A stretch of 35,326 nucleotides of DNA from a bacterium (GCA_030426295.1 JAUHYY010000002.1:1-35326); one strand, 5' to 3'. Counted from the stretch's first letter, positions 6,455-25,719 are shown. Numbers and translations: made by a program. The notes: a model not told the origin generated them from the sequence alone.

Positions 6455-8064
6455 AATTGAGACATTACGAGTTCGATTACTCGAGCGTATTTTTCGATAA
6501 ATTCGTTTTCGAATATTTCTAGTTTTCTATTTGGATTAGTATAAAGACTTAGAGTTCCAACTAGTTCATCTTTGAAAACTAAGGGTATAAGCATTAATGA
6601 ACAAAGATTGTTTTTCTTTGCTAGTGATTTTGATTCGTATTTTGGTTCTTTACCAACGTCGATTATTTTTAGTGCTTTTCTTTCGGTGAATGCTTTTTCG
6701 TAAAGGCTGTCTTTGTATTTTGCAGTTTTCTTGCCTTGCCAATCTTGTCCTACGCCAAAGCTTGAGACTAGTTCAAGTTTTTTAGTGTCTTTGTCAAAAG
6801 TTCTGAGTACGCAAGCATCTACTTTTGTTAGCATAATAATAGAACTTACAATGAAGTCAGCTAGGCTTTGTCTGTCTGATCTTTCGTTTGCAAGTTCTAG
6901 TAGGTCGAAAATATAGTCATTTTGACGTCTTAGAATACCGAATTGATTGTATGCATCTTTGATTTTTTCGTATTTTATAGTGAGTTCTTCTTCGTATTTT
7001 GCCTGGTTTGTAATGTCTCTACAGATAATTAAATGGTGATCTGATTTGTTTCCGTTTTCGTCGAAGATAGGCGTAAGAGTTGCGGATACTTTTATTGTTT
7101 CGCCGTTATTGTGGAATGCATCTATCTCTAGGTTGTATAGTACGCTTTCTGGTGCAGTCATTTCTTTTGCATCGTAATCATGGAAAAGTGTGTTTAGGTT
7201 TTGCCCAATTATTTCTTCTTCTTTATAACCAAATACCATTTTGGCTCCTTTGTTCCATGATGTGATTTTACCATCTGGGTTAAATACAATTATGGCATCA
7301 CTTGCGTATTTAATTGCACTGTTAAGGATTCTTTCAGTTTCTTCTTTTTCTTTGATTTGTGAAAGGTCAGTAAGTATTCCAATTGTTCCTCCTTCTGGTG
7401 AGGGGCTTCCACTTACTATAACTGGTATTTCTTCACCTTTTTTATTGAGAACTATTCCTTCATAGATTGAGCTAATACCATGTTTTCGTTCTTGTTCATT
7501 TATAGATCTAACTTTTTGTGCAGTTTTTTTCTCCCAAATAAATTCAGGATTAATGTCGATTAGTTCTTCTAATTCGTAACCAGTTAATTTACAGAACTCT
7601 GGATTTGCATAAACTGTTCTTTCGTTTTCGTCACCTACCCATACACCTTCTTTCATGTTTTCAATTAGGGTTTGGTACATTGATTCTTTTTTCTTTAGTT
7701 CGGTCATGTCTGTCATTATTCCGACTGTTCCTCCGTCTGGAAGGGGAGTTCCATTAAGAAATACAGGAATTAGTTCTCCAGACTTAGTTTTTAAGTTTCC
7801 TTCATAGCTAGAGCTTATTCCTTTTTTACGGTGATTTTGATTGATGTATTTTACTTTTTCTGTACTTTCTTCGTCCCAGAAAATGTATGATTCTTCGCCT
7901 ATCATTTCGTCTAGGGTATAACCTAGCATTTCTGCGAATCTTGGATTTGCGTAAACAGTTCTTTCGTTTTCGTCACCTACCCATACAGCTTCGGCCATAT
8001 TTTCAATCAGGCCTTTGTATACGTCCTCAGTATTTAATACTTTCTTCAATTTGTTTTCTTGCAT
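6451..8064 (-). CDS. Cytoplasmic sensor protein with three PAS domains and a C-terminal GAF domain, no recognisable output domain
   Basis: Two near-duplicate PAS units (…VWVGDENERTVYANP.F…GY…E…) and a third PAS (IIVFNPDGKITSWNKGAKMVFGYKEEEIIGQNL…ICRDITNQ). These are followed by a GAF-like segment (VDACVLRTFDKDTKKLELVSSFG…CSLMLIPLVFKDELVGTLSLY). No HisKA/HATPase, GGDEF, EAL or HTH seen. Confidence 0.85.
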   Translation of the reverse strand: MQENKLKKVLNTEDVYKGLIENMAEAVWVGDENERTVYANPRFAEMLGYTLDEMIGEESYIFWDEESTEKVKYINQNHRKKGISSSYEGNLKTKSGELIPVFLNGTPLPDGGTVGIMTDMTELKKKESMYQTLIENMKEGVWVGDENERTVYANPEFCKLTGYELEELIDINPEFIWEKKTAQKVRSINEQERKHGISSIYEGIVLNKKGEEIPVIVSGSPSPEGGTIGILTDLSQIKEKEETERILNSAIKYASDAIIVFNPDGKITSWNKGAKMVFGYKEEEIIGQNLNTLFHDYDAKEMTAPESVLYNLEIDAFHNNGETIKVSATLTPIFDENGNKSDHHLIICRDITNQAKYEEELTIKYEKIKDAYNQFGILRRQNDYIFDLLELANERSDRQSLADFIVSSIIMLTKVDACVLRTFDKDTKKLELVSSFGVGQDWQGKKTAKYKDSLYEKAFTERKALKIIDVGKEPKYESKSLAKKNNLCSLMLIPLVFKDELVGTLSLYTNPNRKLEIFENEFIEKYARVIELVMSQF

Positions 8065-15050: not shown

Positions 15051-15247
15051 ATAGAGTGAGGTACTTAGATTGTTGTATATGTAATTGCTACTCTAAATTT
15101 TTTTGGAGGTAGGTTTAGAGTTTAAGAAAAGGCACTATTTGAAAGATTTGGGTGATAGGAGGTGGTTGGTTGAGGAGGTTTATTTGGTGGAGAGGTAGAT
15201 AATTAGATAATTAGTTATAATTATTTGATACATTTTAATACAAAACT

Positions 15248-15547
15248 ATGGGAACACCAGAAACAAGAAGCAATTTTGAAGATAATGTTGAGTTAAATAA
15301 AAGGATGACTTTTGATGAGGCGGTAGAAGTACTAGCTGATTTTCATGGAGCTCCTTCGGAAAATGTCGTTCGTGCATTTACTTTCACTTTAGGAAGAGCT
15401 GAAGATGGGGATCAATTTGAATATCAGGAATCTTTTTATAGAGGTGAAAATCATTTAAAAATTGTTGCTTTTTCTTCGGATGGTACTAAGAGAGCAGATA
15501 CATATATATATAAATATACGGGTCAGCCAATGGCTAAAATTAGCTAA
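15248..15547 (+). CDS. Hypothetical acidic protein, 99 aa
   Basis: ORF preceded by TATAAT (15216-15221). No recognisable motif. Last gene before the island boundary. Confidence 0.5.
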   Translation: MGTPETRSNFEDNVELNKRMTFDEAVEVLADFHGAPSENVVRAFTFTLGRAEDGDQFEYQESFYRGENHLKIVAFSSDGTKRADTYIYKYTGQPMAKIS

Positions 15548-15565
15548 ACTAAGACAAAAACTATG

Positions 15566-15611
15566 TGGAGCCACCGACGAGAGTTGAACTCGTGACCTTC
15601 ACCTTACCATG
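15566..15611 (-). repeat. Distal att repeat: displaced 3' part of tRNA-Thr (anticodon loop to CCA)
   Basis: tggagccaccgacgagagttgaactcgtgaccttcaccttaccatg is identical to 21940-21985 and lacks the tRNA 5' half. Confidence 0.85.
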
Positions 15612-15711
15612 TATAAAGGGTCTATTTAATAACTAGTATTTACCTTTAGTAAGCCGATATGTAGGCTCGGGTGGTAGAAATTGAGTTCTGTCTCGAGGGG
15701 TACACCCGTGT
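15603..15711. repeat. 109-nt direct repeat, copy 1 (att core CTTACCAT plus ~100-nt arm)
   Basis: Aligns without gaps to 17087-17195 with about 10 substitutions by hand alignment. Starts with the anticodon-loop core and ends with GAGGGGTACACCCGTGT. Confidence 0.8.
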
Positions 15712-15769
15712 TGAAATTAGCTTAGTTAAAAATGAGTGTAATTTCAAACTAAACTGGTAAACTTATATT

Positions 15770-15907
15770 ATGAATAATTCACCTAAGAAATTAGATAGAA
15801 AAGTAGTTTACGAAAGTGATTGGGGTATTGGAGGTTCGATATTGACTATATTTGTTTGCTCTGGTTTTTTATGCAATGTAGTATTCTTTCGTATTGATTT
15901 ATTTTGA
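15770..15907 (+). CDS. Possible 45-aa small ORF upstream of fic (one hydrophobic segment)
   Basis: ATG 15770, TGA 15905-15907, ending 2 nt before the fic ATG. MNNSPKKLDRKVVYESDWGIGGSILTIFVCSGFLCNVVFFRIDLF. No homology recognised. Confidence 0.2.
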   Translation: MNNSPKKLDRKVVYESDWGIGGSILTIFVCSGFLCNVVFFRIDLF

Positions 15908-15909
15908 TT

Positions 15910-16998
15910 ATGAAACCATTTAAATTATCGAAATTACCGCTTAACAGTTTAGATTGGGAGAAATTTGTTCATCTTATTGGTAAGGCTAATGCAGAGGTGG
16001 CTAGATTTGATGGTTTACTTCAAAGTATGCCAAATCCTGCAGTTTTACTTTCACCGCTAAGTACAAGAGAGGCGGTTTTGTCTTCCAAAATTGAAGGTAC
16101 ACAGGCGACCTTACGAGAAGTATTTGAGTATGAAGCTCAGATGGAAGGTGATGTACGTCGATATGGTGACATTCAAGAGGTTTTGAATTATAGGAAAGCT
16201 ATGAATTTTGCAATTCAAGAGTTAAAAAAAACGCCTTTGTCTACTAGGGTTATAAAGAAAATACATGAGATTCTTATGAATAGTGTTAGAGGTGAAAATA
16301 AGAATCCAGGTAACTTTAGAAAGATTCAAGTTTGGATAGGTAAATCTGGTACAACTCTTGAAACTGCAAGTTATGTTCCTCCTAGTCCTGATGATTTGCC
16401 TGATCTAATGTCTGATTTAGATAAATATTTTCATATTGATGAAAAAGATGTTCTTGTACAATTGGCAATTGTTCATGCCCAGTTTGAGTTAATTCATCCA
16501 TTTTTAGATGGTAACGGTAGAGTTGGTCGTATTCTTATGCCTTTATTTCTTTACTATAAAGATATTCTTTCGTCACCAATGTTTTATTTGAGTGAATATT
16601 TTGAAAGTGATAGAGATGGTTATTATAGTGCTCTTCAAGGTATTTCAGAAAATGGTGATTGGGAAGGATGGATAGAGTATTTTTTGAATGCAGTAATAGA
16701 TCAATCGAAACAAAATATTGAAAAGGCAAAAGCTATACATAAATTGTATGATGTTAAGAAAGAGAAGATAGCAACTTTAACTAGATCAAGATTTGCTATC
16801 AAAACATTGGACTTTATTTTTTCAGTTCCAATTTTTACAACTACTCAATTTAGGGAAAGTTCTGGCGTTCCAAAAGCGAGCACTTCTAGAATGTTAGATG
16901 CTTTAGAAAAGGGTGCAGTTCTCAAAGTTATTCGAGAAAGTGCTGGTAACCAACCTAAGACGTATGCATTTACAAAGTTATTGGACTTAGTTAACTAA
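15910..16998 (+). CDS. fic: Fic-domain protein (AMPylase-type; Fic_N + Fic + C-terminal winged helix), class II auto-inhibited
   Basis: Canonical Fic motif HPFLDGNGRVGRIL (HxFx[DE]GNGRxxR). N-terminal inhibitory motif SSKIEG (S/TxxxE[GN]). C-terminal wHTH (SSGVPKASTSRMLDALEKGAVLK). ATG at 15910 preferred over the track's TTG at 15904. Confidence 0.85.
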   Translation: MKPFKLSKLPLNSLDWEKFVHLIGKANAEVARFDGLLQSMPNPAVLLSPLSTREAVLSSKIEGTQATLREVFEYEAQMEGDVRRYGDIQEVLNYRKAMNFAIQELKKTPLSTRVIKKIHEILMNSVRGENKNPGNFRKIQVWIGKSGTTLETASYVPPSPDDLPDLMSDLDKYFHIDEKDVLVQLAIVHAQFELIHPFLDGNGRVGRILMPLFLYYKDILSSPMFYLSEYFESDRDGYYSALQGISENGDWEGWIEYFLNAVIDQSKQNIEKAKAIHKLYDVKKEKIATLTRSRFAIKTLDFIFSVPIFTTTQFRESSGVPKASTSRMLDALEKGAVLKVIRESAGNQPKTYAFTKLLDLVN

Positions 16999-17086
16999 AT
17001 TCGTGACTTTTCTTGCGTATCATCTATGGAACGCAAAATAAACCGTGTTCCACTTTAGTACATATGTGGAACGCACAGTGAATATA

Positions 17087-17195
17087 CTTACCATTTATAA
17101 AGGGTCTGTTTGGTGAGTAGTATTTACCTTTATTAAGCCGATATGTAGACTTGGGTGGTAGAAATTTAGTTCTGTCTCGAGGGGTACACCCGTGT
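17087..17195. repeat. 109-nt direct repeat, copy 2 (internal att-like site)
   Basis: cttaccatttataaagggtct…gaggggtacacccgtgt is about 91% identical to 15603-15711. It is not preceded by tRNA sequence. Confidence 0.8.
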
Positions 17196-17203
17196 AGAGT
17201 ATA

Positions 17204-17788
17204 TTAGCATATTTCTTTTTGTATTTCTGATAAAGCCTCTTCGTATTTAGTGGTAACTTTATGAAAAAGATTCTCTTTATTATAGTATTTTTCGAGAAAC
17301 TTTAAAAATTCTGGTGCAACCTCCGAATCTTTCTTTATTTCGTTTAAAATATTCTTGAAATTTTTTTTGTTAGAAATTGAGTTTAGGAAGCAAATTGCGT
17401 CTATATTTCGCACTTTTTCTTGTTCAGTTAGCATCGTGAGAGTGATTTCCATGTCATAAAATTCCTTTACAGCTTTTTTGAATTCTAATACTTTTTTGTA
17501 TACATTATTTGAATTGAATATTTTAAATTCTTCTAAATAATCCAATTTTAGTATTAATTCATATTGGAGTGCTGTAGCTTCTGCTTCGCTTTTGATGTTA
17601 GTTTTTAATGTTTCTAAAGTAGTCTTTGCAACAATATTTGCCCCAGTTTGAATGAATTTCTTTAAAAGAGATATTTTTATTTCTATTTTATGTTTATTAA
17701 TATCAAGTTTATATGAAAACCAAGCTGTATATACTCTTGTGAATATACCTGCTAGATATGAAATGAGGGCAATTATGAGATATTCCAT
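17204..17788 (-). CDS. Hypothetical protein with an N-terminal TM helix and a long helical region, 194 aa
   Basis: MEYLIIALISYLAGIFTRVYTAWF (TM) followed by a Lys/Glu-rich helical sequence. Island cargo; no recognisable motif. Confidence 0.55.
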   Translation of the reverse strand: MEYLIIALISYLAGIFTRVYTAWFSYKLDINKHKIEIKISLLKKFIQTGANIVAKTTLETLKTNIKSEAEATALQYELILKLDYLEEFKIFNSNNVYKKVLEFKKAVKEFYDMEITLTMLTEQEKVRNIDAICFLNSISNKKNFKNILNEIKKDSEVAPEFLKFLEKYYNKENLFHKVTTKYEEALSEIQKEIC

Positions 17789-18222
17789 ATGAGTTCAAAA
17801 ATTGAATATAGTGATCATTGAAAATGATATAGGTGTCCAAGTTAATTTTACTCTAACTAAAATGGAGTCTATTCTCAATGTGTAGTAAGTATGGATGCAG
17901 CAAAGATAAAGATGAGTTATTTGGATTTATAAATTTATGGATTTTAATTTTGTGATTTAGAGAAAAAGGTATTAAAGGGTAAGGCTTTAGCGCGTGAGCA
18001 GGATAATGTTAATCGAGTGGCAGATTTCCAGTTGGCTAAGCGTGGAGATGTTGATGATAAATTGAAATGGCTTCACTATGATCATGAAAAACAAATTTTT
18101 CATATGGTTCATTTAATGACAATTATAACATATTTTCCAGTACTACTTATTATACTGAGTCAAGTTATTGATATTTCATTCCTTAGATTGCTTATTGCAG
18201 GTCTTTGAGGTACTTTTGAATC

Positions 18223-18341
18223 GTACCCCATATGCCGTTTTGCACGAATTCCTGATTTATTCACTTCACCCGATAGCGGGTAGAGGCGGGTAGGTCAGGT
18301 CCGCTATCTTAGGTCTTCGTGATCGATGGTATGTGGGGTAC
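18223..18341. other. About 120-nt inverted-repeat / highly structured element (candidate ncRNA, MITE-like element or recombination site)
   Basis: 11-bp terminal pairing GTACCCCATAT (18223-18233) / ATGTGGGGTAC (18331-18341). Inner 8-bp pairing GATAGCGG (18272-18279) / CCGCTATC (18301-18308). Tandem GCGGGTAG x2 (18276-18283, 18285-18292). CCTACCC (18347-18353) is complementary to GGGTAGG (18287-18293). Confidence 0.5.
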
Positions 18342-18377
18342 ACCTGCCTACCCACTTTTGTTATTTAATTAAAATTT

Positions 18378-18623
18378 ATGAAGTTTAAATTTAGGCCTGC
18401 TAAAAAGTTTTTTATATATTTCTACTTAAGTATCTTGATTGTAAGTAGTTTTTATTGGTTTGAGTTTAGGCCAATTCATATAAGGGTTGAATGTTCTAAT
18501 GAGACTCGAGAAGCTATGAAGGAATCTTTACAGGGACTTGATTCTAATGATATTCAAGGTGTAGCTACATTTATAAGTTTATATTTTGACCTTTGTTTAG
18601 CTGACCATGGTCTTGAAAGGTAG
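18378..18623 (+). CDS. Small membrane protein, 81 aa
   Basis: One TM segment (FFIYFYLSILIVSSFYWF). Island cargo; no recognisable motif. Confidence 0.4.
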   Translation: MKFKFRPAKKFFIYFYLSILIVSSFYWFEFRPIHIRVECSNETREAMKESLQGLDSNDIQGVATFISLYFDLCLADHGLER

Positions 18624-18760
18624 TTGTTTCAGAGGGGCATTAAACTATTATGTCATTGTTTTATATATTAGTATTTATTGATTCTTTTAGTTTGTAAGAG
18701 TTATCTTTTCGTACTTAAACAATAATAAAGTTCTTACTGCAATGCTGTAGCATGAGCATT

Positions 18761-18790
18761 TTGCATTTTTGTAATGTGATATAGTATAAT
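18761..18790 (+). promoter_or_regulatory. Candidate promoter of the internal recombinase gene
   Basis: TTGCAT (18761-18766), an 18-nt spacer, TATAAT (18785-18790), 36 nt before ATG 18826. Confidence 0.4.
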
Positions 18791-18825
18791 TTAGTTACAT
18801 ATCAACAGGCGAAATTTTATTTATT

Positions 18826-19803
18826 ATGAATAAAGGTTTGCCTATAACTATTTATAAACAGAGTGATAGTTCTAAAGATGGTAAGAGATCCATTTGGTTC
18901 TTTTGGGATCAATTTTCTTATATGTATTTAAGGACAGGTAGAAGTGAAGTTACTGTTAAGTCTGTTAAGAGTACTTTAAAGTTTATCACTTCAAATACTT
19001 CTATTTTTTCTATAGAAGACTTGAATAACCCGAGATTGGTTGAAGACTCGTTATTCCATTTAAAGGAAGTGAGAGGGTTTTCAAATTGTACTTATAATTC
19101 GTACAGGAAGAATATTGGTATATTTCTTAATTGGCTCGAGAAGTATGATTACTTGTCTGTAAATAACATTCATAAGGTTGAAAAGTGTAAGTCTAGAATT
19201 GTTGAACAGTTAGTATTAAAGGATGAGGATATTGCTTTAGTTATTACACATATAAGAACTCAATGTGGTTCTAGATTATTAAGATTACGAAATGGTTTCT
19301 TTATTGATTTACTTAGATTTACTGGAGCTCGTTTATGTGAGTTGATGGATTTAAAAGTATCTAATATAACAAAACTTAAAAATGGAGAGTATCGTTTGGT
19401 TATCAGTGGTAGAAAGCAGAAAGGTAGAAATAGATATTATAGGTTAGATTCTTGGGTGCGTGATTCTTATCTAGAGTATATGGAGTACAGAAATAAGCTG
19501 GGTAGAAAAGAAGATAATTTATTTATATCTCAGTCTAAGAGAACGGGATGGACCTCTAAAGGAGTGACAAAATTTTTAAGGAGGATGTCAAAAGAAATTG
19601 GAGTTAATGTTACTTCTTATGGTTTTCGACGGTATGTAGCTACAAAACTGTATTTACGAGGTGTAGAGTTGAGGCAAATAGCTGACTATCTAGGTCATAC
19701 TAGGCTAACAACTACTATGAGGTATGTTGAGAGATGCAGTTTATTGACTGAAAATTGTGGGAAGGTTCTTTTAGGTTGTGTTGATGAGTATGAAGCTAGT
19801 TGA
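18826..19803 (+). CDS. Tyrosine recombinase / phage-type integrase (divergent)
   Basis: Catalytic-domain landmarks: LLRFTGARLCEL (Arg I), YGFRRYVAT (box II with Tyr in place of the usual first His), LGHTRLTTTMRYV (His and Tyr nucleophile). The N-terminal SAM-like core-binding region is plausible. Confidence 0.8.
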   Translation: MNKGLPITIYKQSDSSKDGKRSIWFFWDQFSYMYLRTGRSEVTVKSVKSTLKFITSNTSIFSIEDLNNPRLVEDSLFHLKEVRGFSNCTYNSYRKNIGIFLNWLEKYDYLSVNNIHKVEKCKSRIVEQLVLKDEDIALVITHIRTQCGSRLLRLRNGFFIDLLRFTGARLCELMDLKVSNITKLKNGEYRLVISGRKQKGRNRYYRLDSWVRDSYLEYMEYRNKLGRKEDNLFISQSKRTGWTSKGVTKFLRRMSKEIGVNVTSYGFRRYVATKLYLRGVELRQIADYLGHTRLTTTMRYVERCSLLTENCGKVLLGCVDEYEAS

Positions 19804-19885
19804 TTTGTTGTTCTTTGAAATATTATTTAAAAATCTGTAATATCTAATACTTATTGTGTGTTTTAGATATAACTCATTCGTGTTT

Positions 19886-21001
19886 ATGGATATTCAAAAG
19901 TGTATAGATTGTGAATCTGACTTAGTTGGCGCAGATGTAATCCCTGATTTTTCTAATAAACATATGGATTTAAAATGTCCAAAATGTGGTTATACTATCC
20001 AGTATTCGTTACCAGAGTTAGATAGAAAGGTAATATATTTAGATTCAAATTTTTTAATTAATGCATCGCATGGTGATGTAAATTATTTAAGAATTTATGA
20101 AAAATTGAAACATCTCACTTATACAAAACAAATGGTTATATGTCCTAATTCAGAAGTTCATGAATATGAAGTTTATGGCAGTCCAGCAGGTGATTTTTTA
20201 TTTACTTTGAATGCAGGTATTGGTTTTTCTTATACAGATTCATTATCTAAACTTCAGATTTTTCGTGCTTTTAAAAATTTTCTTTTAGAAAGTAAATCTC
20301 CGTTATATTTGAAAGAAGATTTTTTAGAATCTTCCCCTCAATGGAACTTGCTGAGACGTGGAGGTGCGTGGTCTCATACAAAAATTGTAAAAGACAAAGA
20401 TAAGATTGTAAGAGAATTAGCATCCATTCGTGATGGAAGGTGGTGCAAAGGTGCGGTTATGGAGGATATATTTCAGCATGAGTATTTAGGTTTTTTAAAG
20501 CTCGAAATTGATCGATATGCGCAAAATAGAAGTGGAATGTGCTCTCCAAGTGCGCGTATTTATTCTATAGTCGATTTATTACGGACTAATGGTTATATCC
20601 AAAAGGATATAGTCCATGCATTGAATTCGTTTTGTATTTATATTGGTTATAATTATATCCCTAAATTATTAATAGAGGCAGCATTATTTACTGGTTATGC
20701 TTATGATTATGTGAAAGGAAGTAAGACTAGTATAGATGGAAATACACTTTATGATATCTGGTTTTTAGGTTCTTATTTACCTTTTTGTGATGCAATGTTC
20801 ATAGATAAGCCAATGTTTAATTTGATAAATCAGATAAAAAGTAATCCAGGTAGTCGAGGAGTTCCAGATATAGATGAATATTGTTGCACGAATCTTTTTA
20901 TCCACTCAACTTTGGATGAATTTGAAAATTACTTGGATGATTTAGAGTCAGGATATAAGTATCAAGAAGTTTCAGATAAAATAGGTGTATATTATCCTTA
21001 A
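19886..21001 (+). CDS. Orphan protein with an N-terminal CxxC…CxxC zinc ribbon, 371 aa
   Basis: MDIQKCIDCES…LKCPKCGYTIQY, then VIYLDSNFLINA… and near the C-terminus LGSYLPFCDAMFIDKP, which is reminiscent of PIN-like acidic positions (tentative). ATG 19886 preferred over the track's TTG 19856. Its stop overlaps the stop of the convergent integrase (TTAA). Confidence 0.7.
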   Translation: MDIQKCIDCESDLVGADVIPDFSNKHMDLKCPKCGYTIQYSLPELDRKVIYLDSNFLINASHGDVNYLRIYEKLKHLTYTKQMVICPNSEVHEYEVYGSPAGDFLFTLNAGIGFSYTDSLSKLQIFRAFKNFLLESKSPLYLKEDFLESSPQWNLLRRGGAWSHTKIVKDKDKIVRELASIRDGRWCKGAVMEDIFQHEYLGFLKLEIDRYAQNRSGMCSPSARIYSIVDLLRTNGYIQKDIVHALNSFCIYIGYNYIPKLLIEAALFTGYAYDYVKGSKTSIDGNTLYDIWFLGSYLPFCDAMFIDKPMFNLINQIKSNPGSRGVPDIDEYCCTNLFIHSTLDEFENYLDDLESGYKYQEVSDKIGVYYP

Positions 21002-21894
21002 TTCAGCAAATGCATTTCAATAGATTTACTCATCTGATGGTCAGAGCAGTATAGATATATTGTAGTCGTTGTTATTTTGCTGTGTCCCATGATTTTAGAC
21101 AAAGTGTATATATCGCATCCACCTTCAAGCATAAGAGTTGCGAAAGAGTGCCTGAGAGTGTGAGCTGAGAAGTCTAGTTTTGTTTTGTCTCTTAGTTTCT
21201 TTATCAGGTTGTTGATTCCTTTGTTACCGAAAGGTTTTGGTTTGTGAAGAGATAAAAAGAAGTAGGTTAGTTCTGCATACTTTAGTTTATCTCTGTGTTT
21301 AGTAAATTCTTTTAGGTAAGTATATAGTTTCATGTTCATAGGAATCATTCTATCTTTTCCTCCTTTACCTTGATTAATGAAGATAGTTCGTTTTTCAAAG
21401 CAAATATCATTCATCATTAGATTGCCTACCTCTGACTTACGTAATCCTGCAAAGAGCATAATTGCGATTACAGCTCTATTCCTTATACTTTCGTATTTGT
21501 ACCTATATCTCATGTGGTAGCTAGTATCTAGTACTAATTGTGCCTGTTCTCGTGATAACGTTCTTGGTAGTTTCTTTTCAAGTTTAGGTTTTTCTATAGA
21601 AGCTACATGGTTCTCTTCGATGTAGTTTTTCTCTACTAACCATTTAGCAAAACAGTTTAAATGTTTGTGGTGACTTCTAAAAGTCTCTGCTTGCCATTTT
21701 CGATTAAGTCTTCCTTTGTAGAACCATTGTTCAATGACTTCTTGGTTTAGTTCGCTAATATATTTGATTCCTTGGTCTTTCAGGAATAGTTTAACCGTGC
21801 ATTTGTAGCCATTGGTAGTGTGAGGGCTATAGTTTTTGATGATTGAGCAGTAGTTGAGGTAATTCTCAAATACTTCCATAAGTGAAATTTCCAT
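20998..21894 (-). CDS. int: Tyrosine recombinase / integrase (XerC/D-like), adjacent to tRNA-Thr
   Basis: AGLRKSEVGNL (Arg I), HTLRHSFATLML (H-x-x-R), MGHSKITTTTIYLY (His, Tyr nucleophile). It starts 46 nt from the 3' end of the tRNA. Confidence 0.88.
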   Translation of the reverse strand: MEISLMEVFENYLNYCSIIKNYSPHTTNGYKCTVKLFLKDQGIKYISELNQEVIEQWFYKGRLNRKWQAETFRSHHKHLNCFAKWLVEKNYIEENHVASIEKPKLEKKLPRTLSREQAQLVLDTSYHMRYRYKYESIRNRAVIAIMLFAGLRKSEVGNLMMNDICFEKRTIFINQGKGGKDRMIPMNMKLYTYLKEFTKHRDKLKYAELTYFFLSLHKPKPFGNKGINNLIKKLRDKTKLDFSAHTLRHSFATLMLEGGCDIYTLSKIMGHSKITTTTIYLYCSDHQMSKSIEMHLLN

Positions 21895-21939
21895 AATACG
21901 TAGGTTATATATTATGGATGCACGCCCTAGATGGCTTTA

Positions 21940-21985
21940 TGGAGCCACCGACGAGAGTTGAACTCGTGACCTTCACCTTACCATG
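21940..21985 (-). repeat. Proximal att repeat (inside the functional tRNA-Thr)
   Basis: Identical 46 nt to 15566-15611. Identity ends inside the anticodon loop (…cttaccatg). Confidence 0.85.
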
Positions 21986-22015
21986 GTGCTGCTCTACCAA
22001 CTGAGCTACGGCGGC
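21940..22015 (-). tRNA. tRNA-Thr (anticodon GGU), CCA encoded
   Basis: Minus strand GCCGCCG-TA-GCTC-AGTTGGTA-GAGC-A-GCACC-ATGGTAA-GGTGA-AGGTC-ACGAG-TTCAACT-CTCGT-CGGTGGC-T-CCA. It folds as a cloverleaf with one G4:U69 wobble and a 27:43 G/A mismatch. Loop ATGGTAA gives anticodon GGT. Confidence 0.9.
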
Positions 22016-22132
22016 TTATTTTTGAAGAGTCGATAGGTACTCTTCTTCGGGGGTGTGTTATTGACTAGTTTTCAATGTCCGATTATACTGATTGGTTAGG
22101 GACGGAAGCTACTTTGAGTGGAGGGGTACTCC

Positions 22133-22172
22133 CTTACCATGGGAACGCTCTACCAACTGAGCTACGGTGGCT
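22133..22172 (-). pseudogene. Orphan 5' half of a second tRNA-Thr(GGU) (positions 1 to ~43), no T-arm or 3' acceptor strand
   Basis: Minus strand GCCACCG-TA-GCTC-AGTTGGTA-GAGC-G-TTCCC-ATGGTAA-GGGAG, followed by unrelated TACCCCTCCACTCAAAG…. It lies 117 nt upstream of the intact tRNA. Confidence 0.7.
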
Positions 22173-22267
22173 TTTGGTTTTCCGCTATTTGCTAGGGGAA
22201 TATACCTTTTAATCTAAGGGTTTTTCAACTTAAAAATCCTTGACTATAAAACTTAAAGCAAGATACC

Positions 22268-22302: not shown

Positions 22303-22647
22303 ATGGATTACTTAGAAAACATACAGGCGCAGATTAAAAAAGGCTTACTGGAGTACTCAATCCTACTTATTATTAAGAAGGGTAAGGTGTATGCTTCAGA
22401 TATTATTGAGAAGCTTAAAGATACAGAGCTGATAGTTGTAGAGGGGACTTTGTATCCGCTTTTGAGTCGTCTTCGAAAAAATGAACTTGTTGAGTATGAG
22501 TGGAAGGAGTCAAAAAGTGGTCCTCCTAGAAAGTATTATAAGCTTACGAAAAAAGGTGAAACTGCGCTTAAGAGTCTGACTAAGACTTGGGGTGCTTTGC
22601 ATAAATCAATTAACTCTCTAATAAAGAAAAATGAAAAAAGTAGTTAA
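22303..22647 (+). CDS. PadR-family transcriptional regulator
   Basis: LEYSILLIIKKGKVYASDIIEKL…VEGTLYPLLSRLRKNELVEYEWKES…PRKYYKLTKKGE is the typical PadR winged HTH. Confidence 0.88.
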   Translation: MDYLENIQAQIKKGLLEYSILLIIKKGKVYASDIIEKLKDTELIVVEGTLYPLLSRLRKNELVEYEWKESKSGPPRKYYKLTKKGETALKSLTKTWGALHKSINSLIKKNEKSS

Positions 22648-25386: not shown

Positions 25387-25662
25387 ATGTCACAAGTTTG
25401 CGAATATACAGGAAAAAGACCTACAACTGGTCATAACGTAAGTCATTCGAATAGAAAGACTAAAAGAAGATTCCTACCTAATCTGTTTGATGTTAAATTA
25501 ACTGATCCAGAAACTGGTAAGAAGTTTAAAGCTAGACTATCTACAAATGCTATTAAGACTTTCCAAAAGAATCCAAGCAAATTACTTCAATTCGCTAGAA
25601 AGAAAAGAAAACAATTGGAAAGAAAAGCTGAAAGACTAGCAAAGAGAGGGATAACTAGTTAA
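25387..25662 (+). CDS. rpmB: 50S ribosomal protein L28 with a Lys-rich C-terminal extension
   Basis: [33 protein letters not shown] closely parallels E. coli L28 [33 protein letters not shown]. The start is at ATG 25387, not at the track's 25342. Confidence 0.88.
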
Positions 25663-25691
25663 TGGCTAGTAGCTAATGGCTAAATGTGAAA

Positions 25692-25719
25692 AGCAGTGGT
25701 TTTACACCACTGTTTTTTT
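25692..25719 (+). terminator. Rho-independent terminator after rpmB
   Basis: aaGCAGTGGTtttaCACCACTGttttttt. Confidence 0.7.

Follow-up and report, generated by a model that had tools for sequence, protein, structure and literature searches.

A putative tRNA-replacing integrative element at tRNA-Thr(GGU) with a pair of Xer-like recombinases

We analysed a stretch of bacterial DNA of 35,326 nucleotides (nt; GCA_030426295.1, JAUHYY010000002.1:1-35326), hereafter the window, in which positions are counted from the first letter. The interval between 15566 and 22171 contains an intact tRNA-Thr(GGU) gene adjoined by a tyrosine integrase (Int298), a second, converging tyrosine recombinase (Rec325), a Fic-domain gene, and a tRNA-Thr fragment at either end. 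It is probably a member of a widespread family of small integrative elements (5.4-8.9 kb) that target tRNA-Thr(GGU), and comparison with relatives suggests that such elements split the tRNA gene of their host in the anticodon loop and bring a complete replacement gene with them. An initial annotation of the window had recognised a site-specific integrative island at this tRNA gene, abutted by a tyrosine recombinase, which our results bear out; it had also described a single unit with textbook restoration of the tRNA, and in these respects it needs revision.

The tRNA-Thr(GGU) locus

A repeat search, followed by direct inspection of the sequence, revealed an exact direct repeat of 46 nt (15566-15611 and 21940-21985) within a slightly wider pair (15561-15611 and 21935-21985), as had been noted before; an exact repeat of this length within 35 kb is far beyond chance. 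The right copy belongs to an intact tRNA-Thr(GGU) gene (21940-22015, minus strand) that both ARAGORN and Rfam call (62.9 bits against a gathering threshold of 29). In tRNA numbering the repeat covers positions 31-76, from the final anticodon-stem pair across the loop to the encoded CCA. The left copy lacks a 5' half, and from 15612 onward the sequence is not tRNA-like, in agreement with the earlier view that this copy is a 3' fragment only. Int298 starts 45 nt past the 3' end of the intact tRNA; the genes named in the initial annotation are right, and its wording is corrected in that tRNA and integrase both lie at the right end, on the minus strand. An integrase adjoining an intact tRNA, with a displaced fragment in direct orientation at the other end, makes the locus an island in the sense of the Islander database, and the same holds for its relatives. 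The guanine-plus-cytosine (GC) content of 15612-21939 is 0.320, below all 82 flank windows of equal size (0.342-0.372), a comparison that had been suggested earlier and that also speaks for an island. The names given to homologues of a flanking TrmB-like gene place the host, an uncultured bacterium, in the Peregrinibacteria.

The initial annotation ended the island at 21985 and missed a second fragment, the 5' part of a tRNA-Thr (F5), which lies 156 nt upstream of the intact tRNA and is separated from it by a spacer (S), so that the locus extends beyond that boundary. The anticodon stem of F5 is completed by the three bases that follow it (22129-22131). The principal features are:

15566-15611, minus: distal 3' tRNA-Thr fragment (positions 31-76) on the side of the putative right junction, attR; 46 of 46 nt identical to 21940-21985
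15602-15611, minus: core common to all three tRNA-derived pieces, within the distal fragment
15612-15714, minus: X arm, the candidate element arm at attR; motif GGGTGTACCCCTCGAG at 15692-15707, about 98 nt before the core
18826-19803, plus: Rec325, second Xer-like tyrosine recombinase (Pfam, 6e-21), converging on Int298
20998-21894, minus: Int298, Xer-like tyrosine integrase of 298 amino acids (aa; Pfam Phage_integrase PF00589, 3e-34)
21940-22015, minus: intact tRNA-Thr(GGU) (ARAGORN, Rfam); by analogy with the family, and from the pairing seen in relatives, the putative element-borne replacement copy
22016-22131, minus: spacer S, the candidate element arm at the left junction, attL; homologous to the X arm and starting with the motif variant GGGAGTACCCCTCCAC (22118-22133)
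22132-22171, minus: F5, 5' tRNA-Thr fragment (positions 1-40), the putative attL relic of a split host tRNA

Homologues of Int298 number in the thousands, and the best 120 are 52-76% identical to it and mostly 297-300 aa long; the few that carry a name are mostly from Peregrinibacteria, with single matches in Gracilibacteria and the Patescibacteria group. We fetched 80 loci of Int298 relatives from species-representative genomes (labelled L0xx below). A tRNA on the same strand lies within 400 nt upstream of the integrase in 54 of the 80 loci, with gaps of 26-254 nt, and 36 of these 54 are tRNA-Thr(GGU), distant relatives being located at Lys, Val, Met or Ala tRNAs. Close relatives for which no tRNA was called have Thr-derived pieces at the same place. 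Int298 therefore belongs to a group of tRNA-specific integrases, its own clade being specific for tRNA-Thr(GGU). The members of this large clade, mainly from Peregrinibacteria and Gracilibacteria, are almost always located directly 3' of that gene.

Split host tRNA genes in the relatives

About 35 loci, drawn from many species, have a 5' fragment comparable to F5 (positions 1 to about 40); it precedes the tRNA by 127-190 nt (mostly 146-176 nt), and at the tRNA-Lys loci this fragment derives from tRNA-Lys. A relaxed search also detected distal 3' fragments, 5-9 kb past the integrase, in 13 relatives. All seven acceptor-stem and all five anticodon-stem pairs form between the 5' fragment and its distal 3' counterpart in 11 of the first 12 relatives and 11 of 12 pairs in the twelfth, and the pairing is again perfect in L095, a thirteenth locus that was found independently. 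As a control, complete pairing (12/12) was reached by 3% of cross-locus combinations, and none of 100,000 permutations yielded 11 perfect loci. The 5' half of the intact tRNA, combined with the distal fragment, gives a mean of 9.4 of 12 pairs in the relatives. When the two fragments were rejoined in silico, ARAGORN called a tRNA-Thr(GGU) in 14 of 14 loci, whereas the hybrid expected from classical integration failed or was aberrant in 7 of 13 relatives. Because the fragments of the relatives pair with each other and not with the intact tRNA, they represent the halves of the host gene, and the intact tRNA belongs to the inserted DNA. Classical integration would make the intact 5' half and the distal fragment the original host halves; the pairing in the relatives says otherwise. 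Textbook restoration of the tRNA, as initially assumed, is not supported for the family, since both host halves are displaced in the 13 relatives, and it could perhaps still apply to the last event in the window (see below).

Core and arms of the attachment site

The sequence always common to both junctions in 13 family members is TGGTAA (positions 33-38), and the shared block can shrink to positions 32-38. Since no other sequence is always shared by the junctions, strand exchange must take place in the anticodon loop, which is where the crossover had been placed before.

Spacer S and the X arm are homologous from a 16-nt motif (GGGTGTACCCCTCGAG) onward, as shown by their alignment. Where 0.05 matches to the motif would be expected in the window, three are present. 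Its position relative to the loop is the same from locus to locus: at attL it follows the loop by 6 nt, and at attR it precedes the loop by about 99 nt, as in every relative that has a distal fragment. In three of these (L010, L027 and L028) both arms carry an identical variant. S and X look like the two arms of a single attachment site of a circular form (attP), which would be further evidence that the spacer belongs to the element, and the motif is a putative binding site. Neither arms nor spacer matched any Rfam family. A weaker third copy of the motif, (A/C)GGTGTACCCCAC, lies at 18333-18345 on the minus strand, beyond the partner recombinase; L025 also has a weaker copy beyond its partner recombinase, about 4 kb after the start of the integrase.

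Two promoter-like sites are located near F5, and both are conserved in L084, the closest relative:

22199-22228, minus: TTGAAA-18-TATATT, 27 nt upstream of F5
22061-22089, plus: TTGACT-17-TATACT, within the spacer

The first, a good match, probably served the former host tRNA gene. The second, a strong one, points out of the element, towards F5 and the PadR-PspC genes; were the element circular, transcription from it would cross attP in the direction of the Fic cassette described below.

Two Xer-like recombinases

Int298 is Xer-like over its full length according to family models and solved structures (PDB 1a0p, 4a8e and 5hxy), and its catalytic residues R152, K177, H245, R248, H271 and Y280 are invariant in 24 clade members. 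Its scores against NCBIfam models are below the equivalog cut-offs (XerC, 173 against 335 bits; XerD, 162 against 330 bits), and it is not an integron integrase (TIGR02249, 101 against 265 bits; NF011946, 62 against 435 bits). Rec325, which had been counted among the cargo, has the same closest solved structures, XerA and XerD, and scores 69 bits for XerC and 66 bits for XerD (cut-offs 335 and 330). Both proteins fall within the tyrosine recombinase superfamily. Homologues of Rec325 (28-51% identical) occupy the same convergent position in all loci of the close clade with enough sequence; all 23 sequences have R169, K197, R268, H291 and Y300, and 20 of the 23 have Tyr at the second His position (His-II), a variant signature. 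To judge from this conservation, Rec325 is a core gene of the element and not cargo. The half-sites flanking the anticodon loop are asymmetric, a feature compatible with binding by two different proteins, and Int298 and Rec325 may act together as a heterotetramer similar to XerC/XerD.

The gap between the two recombinase genes spans between 7 and about 3000 nt in the relatives, and the genes in it are unrelated, e.g., HEPN_AbiU2 in L095. In the window this variable slot contains:

19856-21001, plus: open reading frame (ORF) of 381 aa (371 aa) with an N-terminal zinc ribbon, from an uncharacterised family

About 300 remote homologues of this ORF form an unannotated family with a CxxC...CxxC zinc ribbon and conserved acidic residues. 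Searches with homologues and with Pfam and PDB profiles, and a Foldseek search with a weak AlphaFold model (pLDDT, a per-residue confidence measure, of 61), gave nothing usable. The motif VIYLDSNFLI near its start is PIN-like, and a PIN domain appeared at rank 8 in Foldseek (E 0.8), which is a hint. In L084 there is no slot gene and the recombinase genes directly abut; the integrase is 76% identical to Int298 and the partner recombinase (L084:7633-8586) 39% identical to Rec325, suggesting that the two recombinase genes do not always travel together.

L020 (OZ245999.1), labelled Wenzhouxiangellaceae, has an integrase with 55% identity and tandem Thr fragments at a local GC content of 0.37-0.48; either the taxonomic label is wrong or the element crossed phyla. 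On a Gracilibacteria chromosome (L006:7656-7937), the tRNA-Thr(GGU) adjoining the integrase is broken after the anticodon by about 207 nt (7691-7897), with ATGGT before and AA after the insertion. ARAGORN made no call for this tRNA, and a search for Rfam intron families at E <= 0.01 found none, for which reason the insertion was not called a group I intron.

Composite structure and cargo

The initial annotation treated the island as one unit. An internal copy of core and arm at 17087-17198 sets off a Fic cassette from the remainder, and the features to the left of Rec325 are:

15770-15907, plus: ORF of 45 aa, cargo of the cassette
15904 or 15910 to 16998, plus: Fic-domain protein, SoFic-like (Pfam Fic_N and Fic)
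17087-17198, minus: internal copy of core and arm, 90% identical to 15603-15714 over 112 nt
17087-17095, minus: O', a slightly decayed core (AATGGTAAG), with no tRNA 3' half beyond it
17096-17198, minus: X' arm, motif at 17176-17191
17204-17788, minus: ORF of 194 aa with a hydrophobic N-terminus, no family match
18017-18208, plus: ORF of 63 aa
18378-18623, plus: ORF of 81 aa

Lying between two arm-plus-core sites, the Fic gene and the 45-aa ORF constitute an integrase-less cassette. The internal copy marks the boundary between this cassette and the main element, and the simplest explanation is that recombination at the distal core of the latter inserted the cassette. The layout recurs in L010, where the cargo is unrelated (X', CATGGTAA, 1.1 kb of cargo, X, core, fragment). 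Two direct repeats, CATNTRTGGAACGCA, at 17021-17042 and 17061-17082, 40 nt apart, lie inside the Fic cassette next to the internal core and possibly represent a binding site.

The Fic protein matches the PADLOC model of SoFic (PDLC03963) at 1e-120, over its full length (residues 3-363 on profile positions 6-358 of 361), and scores 181 bits against the NCBIfam SoFic model, below the equivalog cut-off of 550; it thus resembles the anti-phage defence protein SoFic. The accessory nature of the cargo, noted earlier, is upheld for all genes except Rec325. Cargo differs in every relative and is often defence-like:

L095: HEPN_AbiU2
L017: NsnB/AriA-like ATPase
L028: PDC-M68A/B
L019: PLD nuclease
L023: type III restriction-modification
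L092: reverse transcriptase and helix-turn-helix protein
L084: ResIII and DUF2779

From these family matches, the cargo of the family looks like anti-phage defence. The element does not look like a prophage or a satellite: the only PHROGs matches in the window are the two integrases and Fic, and no relatives of the element were found among the viral contigs of IMG/VR.

Elsewhere in the window, ARAGORN called a tRNA-Ile(AAU) of 90 nt (25630-25719) that overlaps the end of the L28 gene, has no Rfam support, and is probably a false positive. A sub-threshold Rfam match to an S15 leader (25.7 against 39.5 bits; 15435-15551, minus) lies inside an ORF of 99 aa and is most likely due to chance.

Proposed mechanism and alternative explanations

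We suggest that in the circular form of the element arms X and S flank the 7-nt anticodon-loop core to make up an attP, after which come a complete tRNA-Thr(GGU), Int298, the variable slot, the converging Rec325 and the cargo. Recombination within the anticodon loop of the host tRNA would split the host gene; its 5' part would stay upstream with the host promoter (22132-22171 in the window), its 3' part would be displaced to the far end (15566-15611), and the tRNA of the element (21940-22015) would take over the function. Since the element carries a whole tRNA, it would be freed from the stem sequences of the host, and only the loop would have to match. In this replacement mode, the empty site is predicted to run from 15601 through CCTTACCATG to 22142, joining the distal fragment to the 5' fragment, and the circle, with spacer and tRNA, from 22131 through CCTTACCATG to 15612. 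In the window, the main element would comprise S, the tRNA, Int298, the 381-aa ORF, Rec325, the small ORFs, the 194-aa ORF and X', and the integrase-less cassette (Fic, the 45-aa ORF and X) would have been inserted at its distal core. The element may still be mobile.

More generally, we tentatively combine three propositions, to whose joint truth we give a little less than an even chance: that tRNA-replacing elements are common across bacteria of the candidate phyla radiation, with a broad host range due to loop-only targeting; that an element-encoded pair similar to XerC/XerD acts on an attP with homologous arms and a repeated 16-nt motif; and that integrase-less cassettes with the same arms are added at the distal core, the locus growing as an array of defence genes.

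Several observations weigh against the replacement model or its application to the window. In the window, F5 and the 5' half of the intact tRNA pair equally well with the distal fragment (7/7 and 4/5), so that pairing does not discriminate, and the distal fragment is identical to positions 31-76 of the resident tRNA, which fits a classical last event. On a Gracilibacteria chromosome (OY760177.1, L005/L006), two integrase-partner pairs lie in tandem about 20 kb apart with a single 5' fragment, the second pair being preceded by an arm, a core and a 3' half only, an arrangement that a pure whole-tRNA mode does not predict. When the window is compared with L084, divergence in the fragment, spacer, tRNA and integrase is about that of the host genes, and the module next to the tRNA may long have been inherited vertically. 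Family searches of the window proteins recognised no genes for replication, transfer or excision. None of the relatives fetched via either flank showed an empty site. In public sequencing runs we saw neither an excised circle nor an empty site, where Logan contigs (built from 31-letter words) break inside the 46-nt repeat, and a joint from 15611 to 22142 (distal core to 5' fragment) was likewise not seen in Logan contigs.

The window alone could be read as a classical single island of 6.37 kb (15612-21939), whose attP carried only the 3' part of the tRNA and restored the host gene, F5 and the spacer being an older, unrelated scar. This fits the perfect 46-nt repeat, which starts exactly at position 31 and ends at CCA, and the strands of the anticodon stem, as the distal GGTGA fits GCACC of the intact tRNA and not TTCCC of F5, which is matched by its own following GGGAG. 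The distal fragment of the window is therefore not the original partner of F5. L023 shows the same pattern without a 5' fragment, and junctions consisting of arm, core, 3' half and integrase, which classical events need or produce, exist in L005, L016, L052 and L066. For the locus as a whole we nevertheless consider a purely classical origin unlikely, because it leaves unexplained F5, a spacer that is homologous to X and shares its motif, and the host-type promoter before F5, because in 13 relatives the hybrid is not the original host tRNA, and because the island is not a single unit. As the distal fragment matches the 3' part of the resident gene and misfits the stem of F5, the last event in the window was either classical recombination at a resident tRNA of the element type or gene conversion by the resident copy; the classical model of the initial annotation may thus describe the last event inside a replacement-type locus.

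Alternatively, the module of fragment, spacer, tRNA, Int298 and Rec325 could be an old, vertically inherited and immobile relic, next to which cargo came and went by ordinary gain and loss. The module occupies the same locus in the window and in L084 and has diverged there as the host genes have, neither circle nor empty site was seen, and viral contigs hold no relatives. We saw no step in divergence between the window and L084 at either candidate boundary. A metagenome scan with the TrmB protein of the left flank yielded only four short, distant contigs, and in the relatives L092-L094, found through TrmB homologues, other genes lie between TrmB and the site, L092 and L093 being occupied and no empty site being present. 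We regard a fixed relic as improbable, however, since the catalytic residues of both recombinases are retained throughout the clade, the 46-nt repeat is free of mismatches, one chromosome (L005/L006) bears copies in tandem, and the partner recombinase of L084 is much less conserved than its integrase. Moreover, the host halves still pair perfectly in 12 of 13 relatives though neither is functional alone, which argues for young insertions or for regular rejoining.

The thousands of uniform 298-aa homologues also raised the possibility of a housekeeping XerC/XerD pair, i.e., chromosome-dimer resolvases of the host that happen to lie beside a tRNA. Both proteins are indeed Xer-like over their full length, form a pair, and are found at the same locus in most close genomes. 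We set this very improbable explanation aside on account of the split host tRNA, between whose halves the genes lie, and of the tandem copies, two pairs lying 20 kb apart in one chromosome; the scores for XerC and XerD are far under the cut-offs, distant relatives sit at other tRNAs, and variable genes occur between and beside the recombinases. An assembly artefact, namely a chimeric join of two strains at a conserved tRNA, to which one might ascribe that Logan contigs cannot phase the repeat and that the public run X1 holds several related strains and tRNA alleles, is hardly credible given the Joint Genome Institute (JGI) metagenome contig that the window comes from, which runs through both repeat copies (3300036198, Ga0401691_0034), the uniform coverage of flanks and island (4.5-7.5x) in the independent public runs X2 and X3, and the same architecture in more than a dozen independent genomes.

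In X1 the left flank is covered 208x, the island 55-100x and the right flank 5-9x; a half-occupied population was considered as the cause and dropped, since depth in this run varies from 1x to 740x across the window. From X1 there is also a Logan contig of 4.4 kb (161x) that combines a diverged copy of the sequence downstream of TrmB, the beginning of the tRNA 3' part and, at a distance of 2.2 kb, the start of a PadR-like gene (matches to 15107-15193, 15565-15592 and 22303-22343 of the window); the gene order around the tRNA is therefore different in a related strain of that sample. A second tRNA allele in X1 shows a compensatory change at 28-42.

Comparison with known systems

Islands and prophages reportedly integrate into tRNA genes with a crossover in the anticodon loop. 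In the tRNA islands of Islander (PMC4383910), the integrase lies by the tRNA, and the far end is recognised by a displaced, directly oriented 3' fragment. The family described here shares with classical islands the tyrosine integrase adjoining the tRNA, the distal direct 3' fragment, the crossover in a 7-nt loop, and tandem stacking. Classical islands, however, carry the 3' part and regenerate the gene by fusion, whereas members of this family would carry a complete tRNA together with an upstream spacer and leave both host halves behind, a 5' fragment marking the near end; and classical islands encode one integrase with an arm-binding domain, not two Xer-like recombinases. What appears to be new compared with known islands is thus the combination of tRNA replacement with a recombinase pair.

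Tycheposons of Prochlorococcus (10.1101/2020.12.28.424599) have classical flanks of partial tRNAs, and many carry replication modules or modules similar to phage-inducible chromosomal islands (PICI-like). They resemble our elements in being small and cargo-bearing, in using few tRNA targets, among them Thr(GGU), in having integrase clades each specific for a tRNA, in tandem accretion with partial tRNAs between elements, and in their adaptive or defence cargo. They differ in that our elements have no recognised replication gene, encode a 298-aa Xer-like integrase with a partner, and replace the tRNA; these likenesses and differences are ones of architecture. The nearest precedent for a displaced 5' fragment beside a second tRNA-Thr(GGU) is a single archaeal locus in Caldiarchaeum subterraneum (PMC3293823), where a 5' fragment of tRNA-Thr(GGU) lies upstream of a second, intact tRNA-Thr(GGU) and a recombinase element was held responsible. 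There, a 1.8-kb recombinase element lies between fragment and intact gene and introns are involved, and the paper mentions neither a matching 3' fragment nor paired recombinases nor a pattern across a family.

The recombinases are like XerC/XerD in their two-domain architecture, in their catalytic residues, and in that two different recombinases are encoded together. Unlike XerC/XerD, they score below the equivalog cut-offs, are borne by the element, and have a tRNA anticodon loop and not dif as their apparent target, and Rec325 mostly has Tyr at His-II. For integrase-less modules, cis-mobilisable elements, which accrete at the att sites of integrative and conjugative elements (ICEs), and integron cassettes are the systems to compare. 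Like cis-mobilisable elements, the Fic module lacks an integrase and is bounded by two arm-plus-core sites, and the recombinase of its neighbour could therefore insert or excise it. Unlike in integron cassettes, the site consists of a 100-nt arm and a tRNA-loop core and not of an attC hairpin, and the integrase is far below the integron cut-offs. The Fic protein itself is like SoFic in its full-length match and its Fic_N and Fic domains, and unlike it in falling below the NCBIfam cut-off. Full-text literature searches found no description of this element family, which is not proof of absence; the family is apparently undescribed.

Implications

Island finders that rely on tRNA fragments expect the gene to be regenerated as a hybrid and a single 3' fragment to be displaced. 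With elements of this kind, their near boundary would fall short by about 190 nt (in the window, 21985 and not 22171), and they would label the tRNA of the element as a host gene. Matching of the loop only offers a simple explanation for how a single integrase clade could spread across lineages whose tRNA-Thr stems differ, and the conserved Xer-like pair with its defined short target can be tested directly in a heterologous host. Little has been described of mobile elements in such hosts, which have small genomes and are mostly episymbionts; to judge from its cargo (SoFic, AbiU2, PARIS-like ATPases, and restriction-modification), the family may be a vehicle by which defence genes move in these bacteria.

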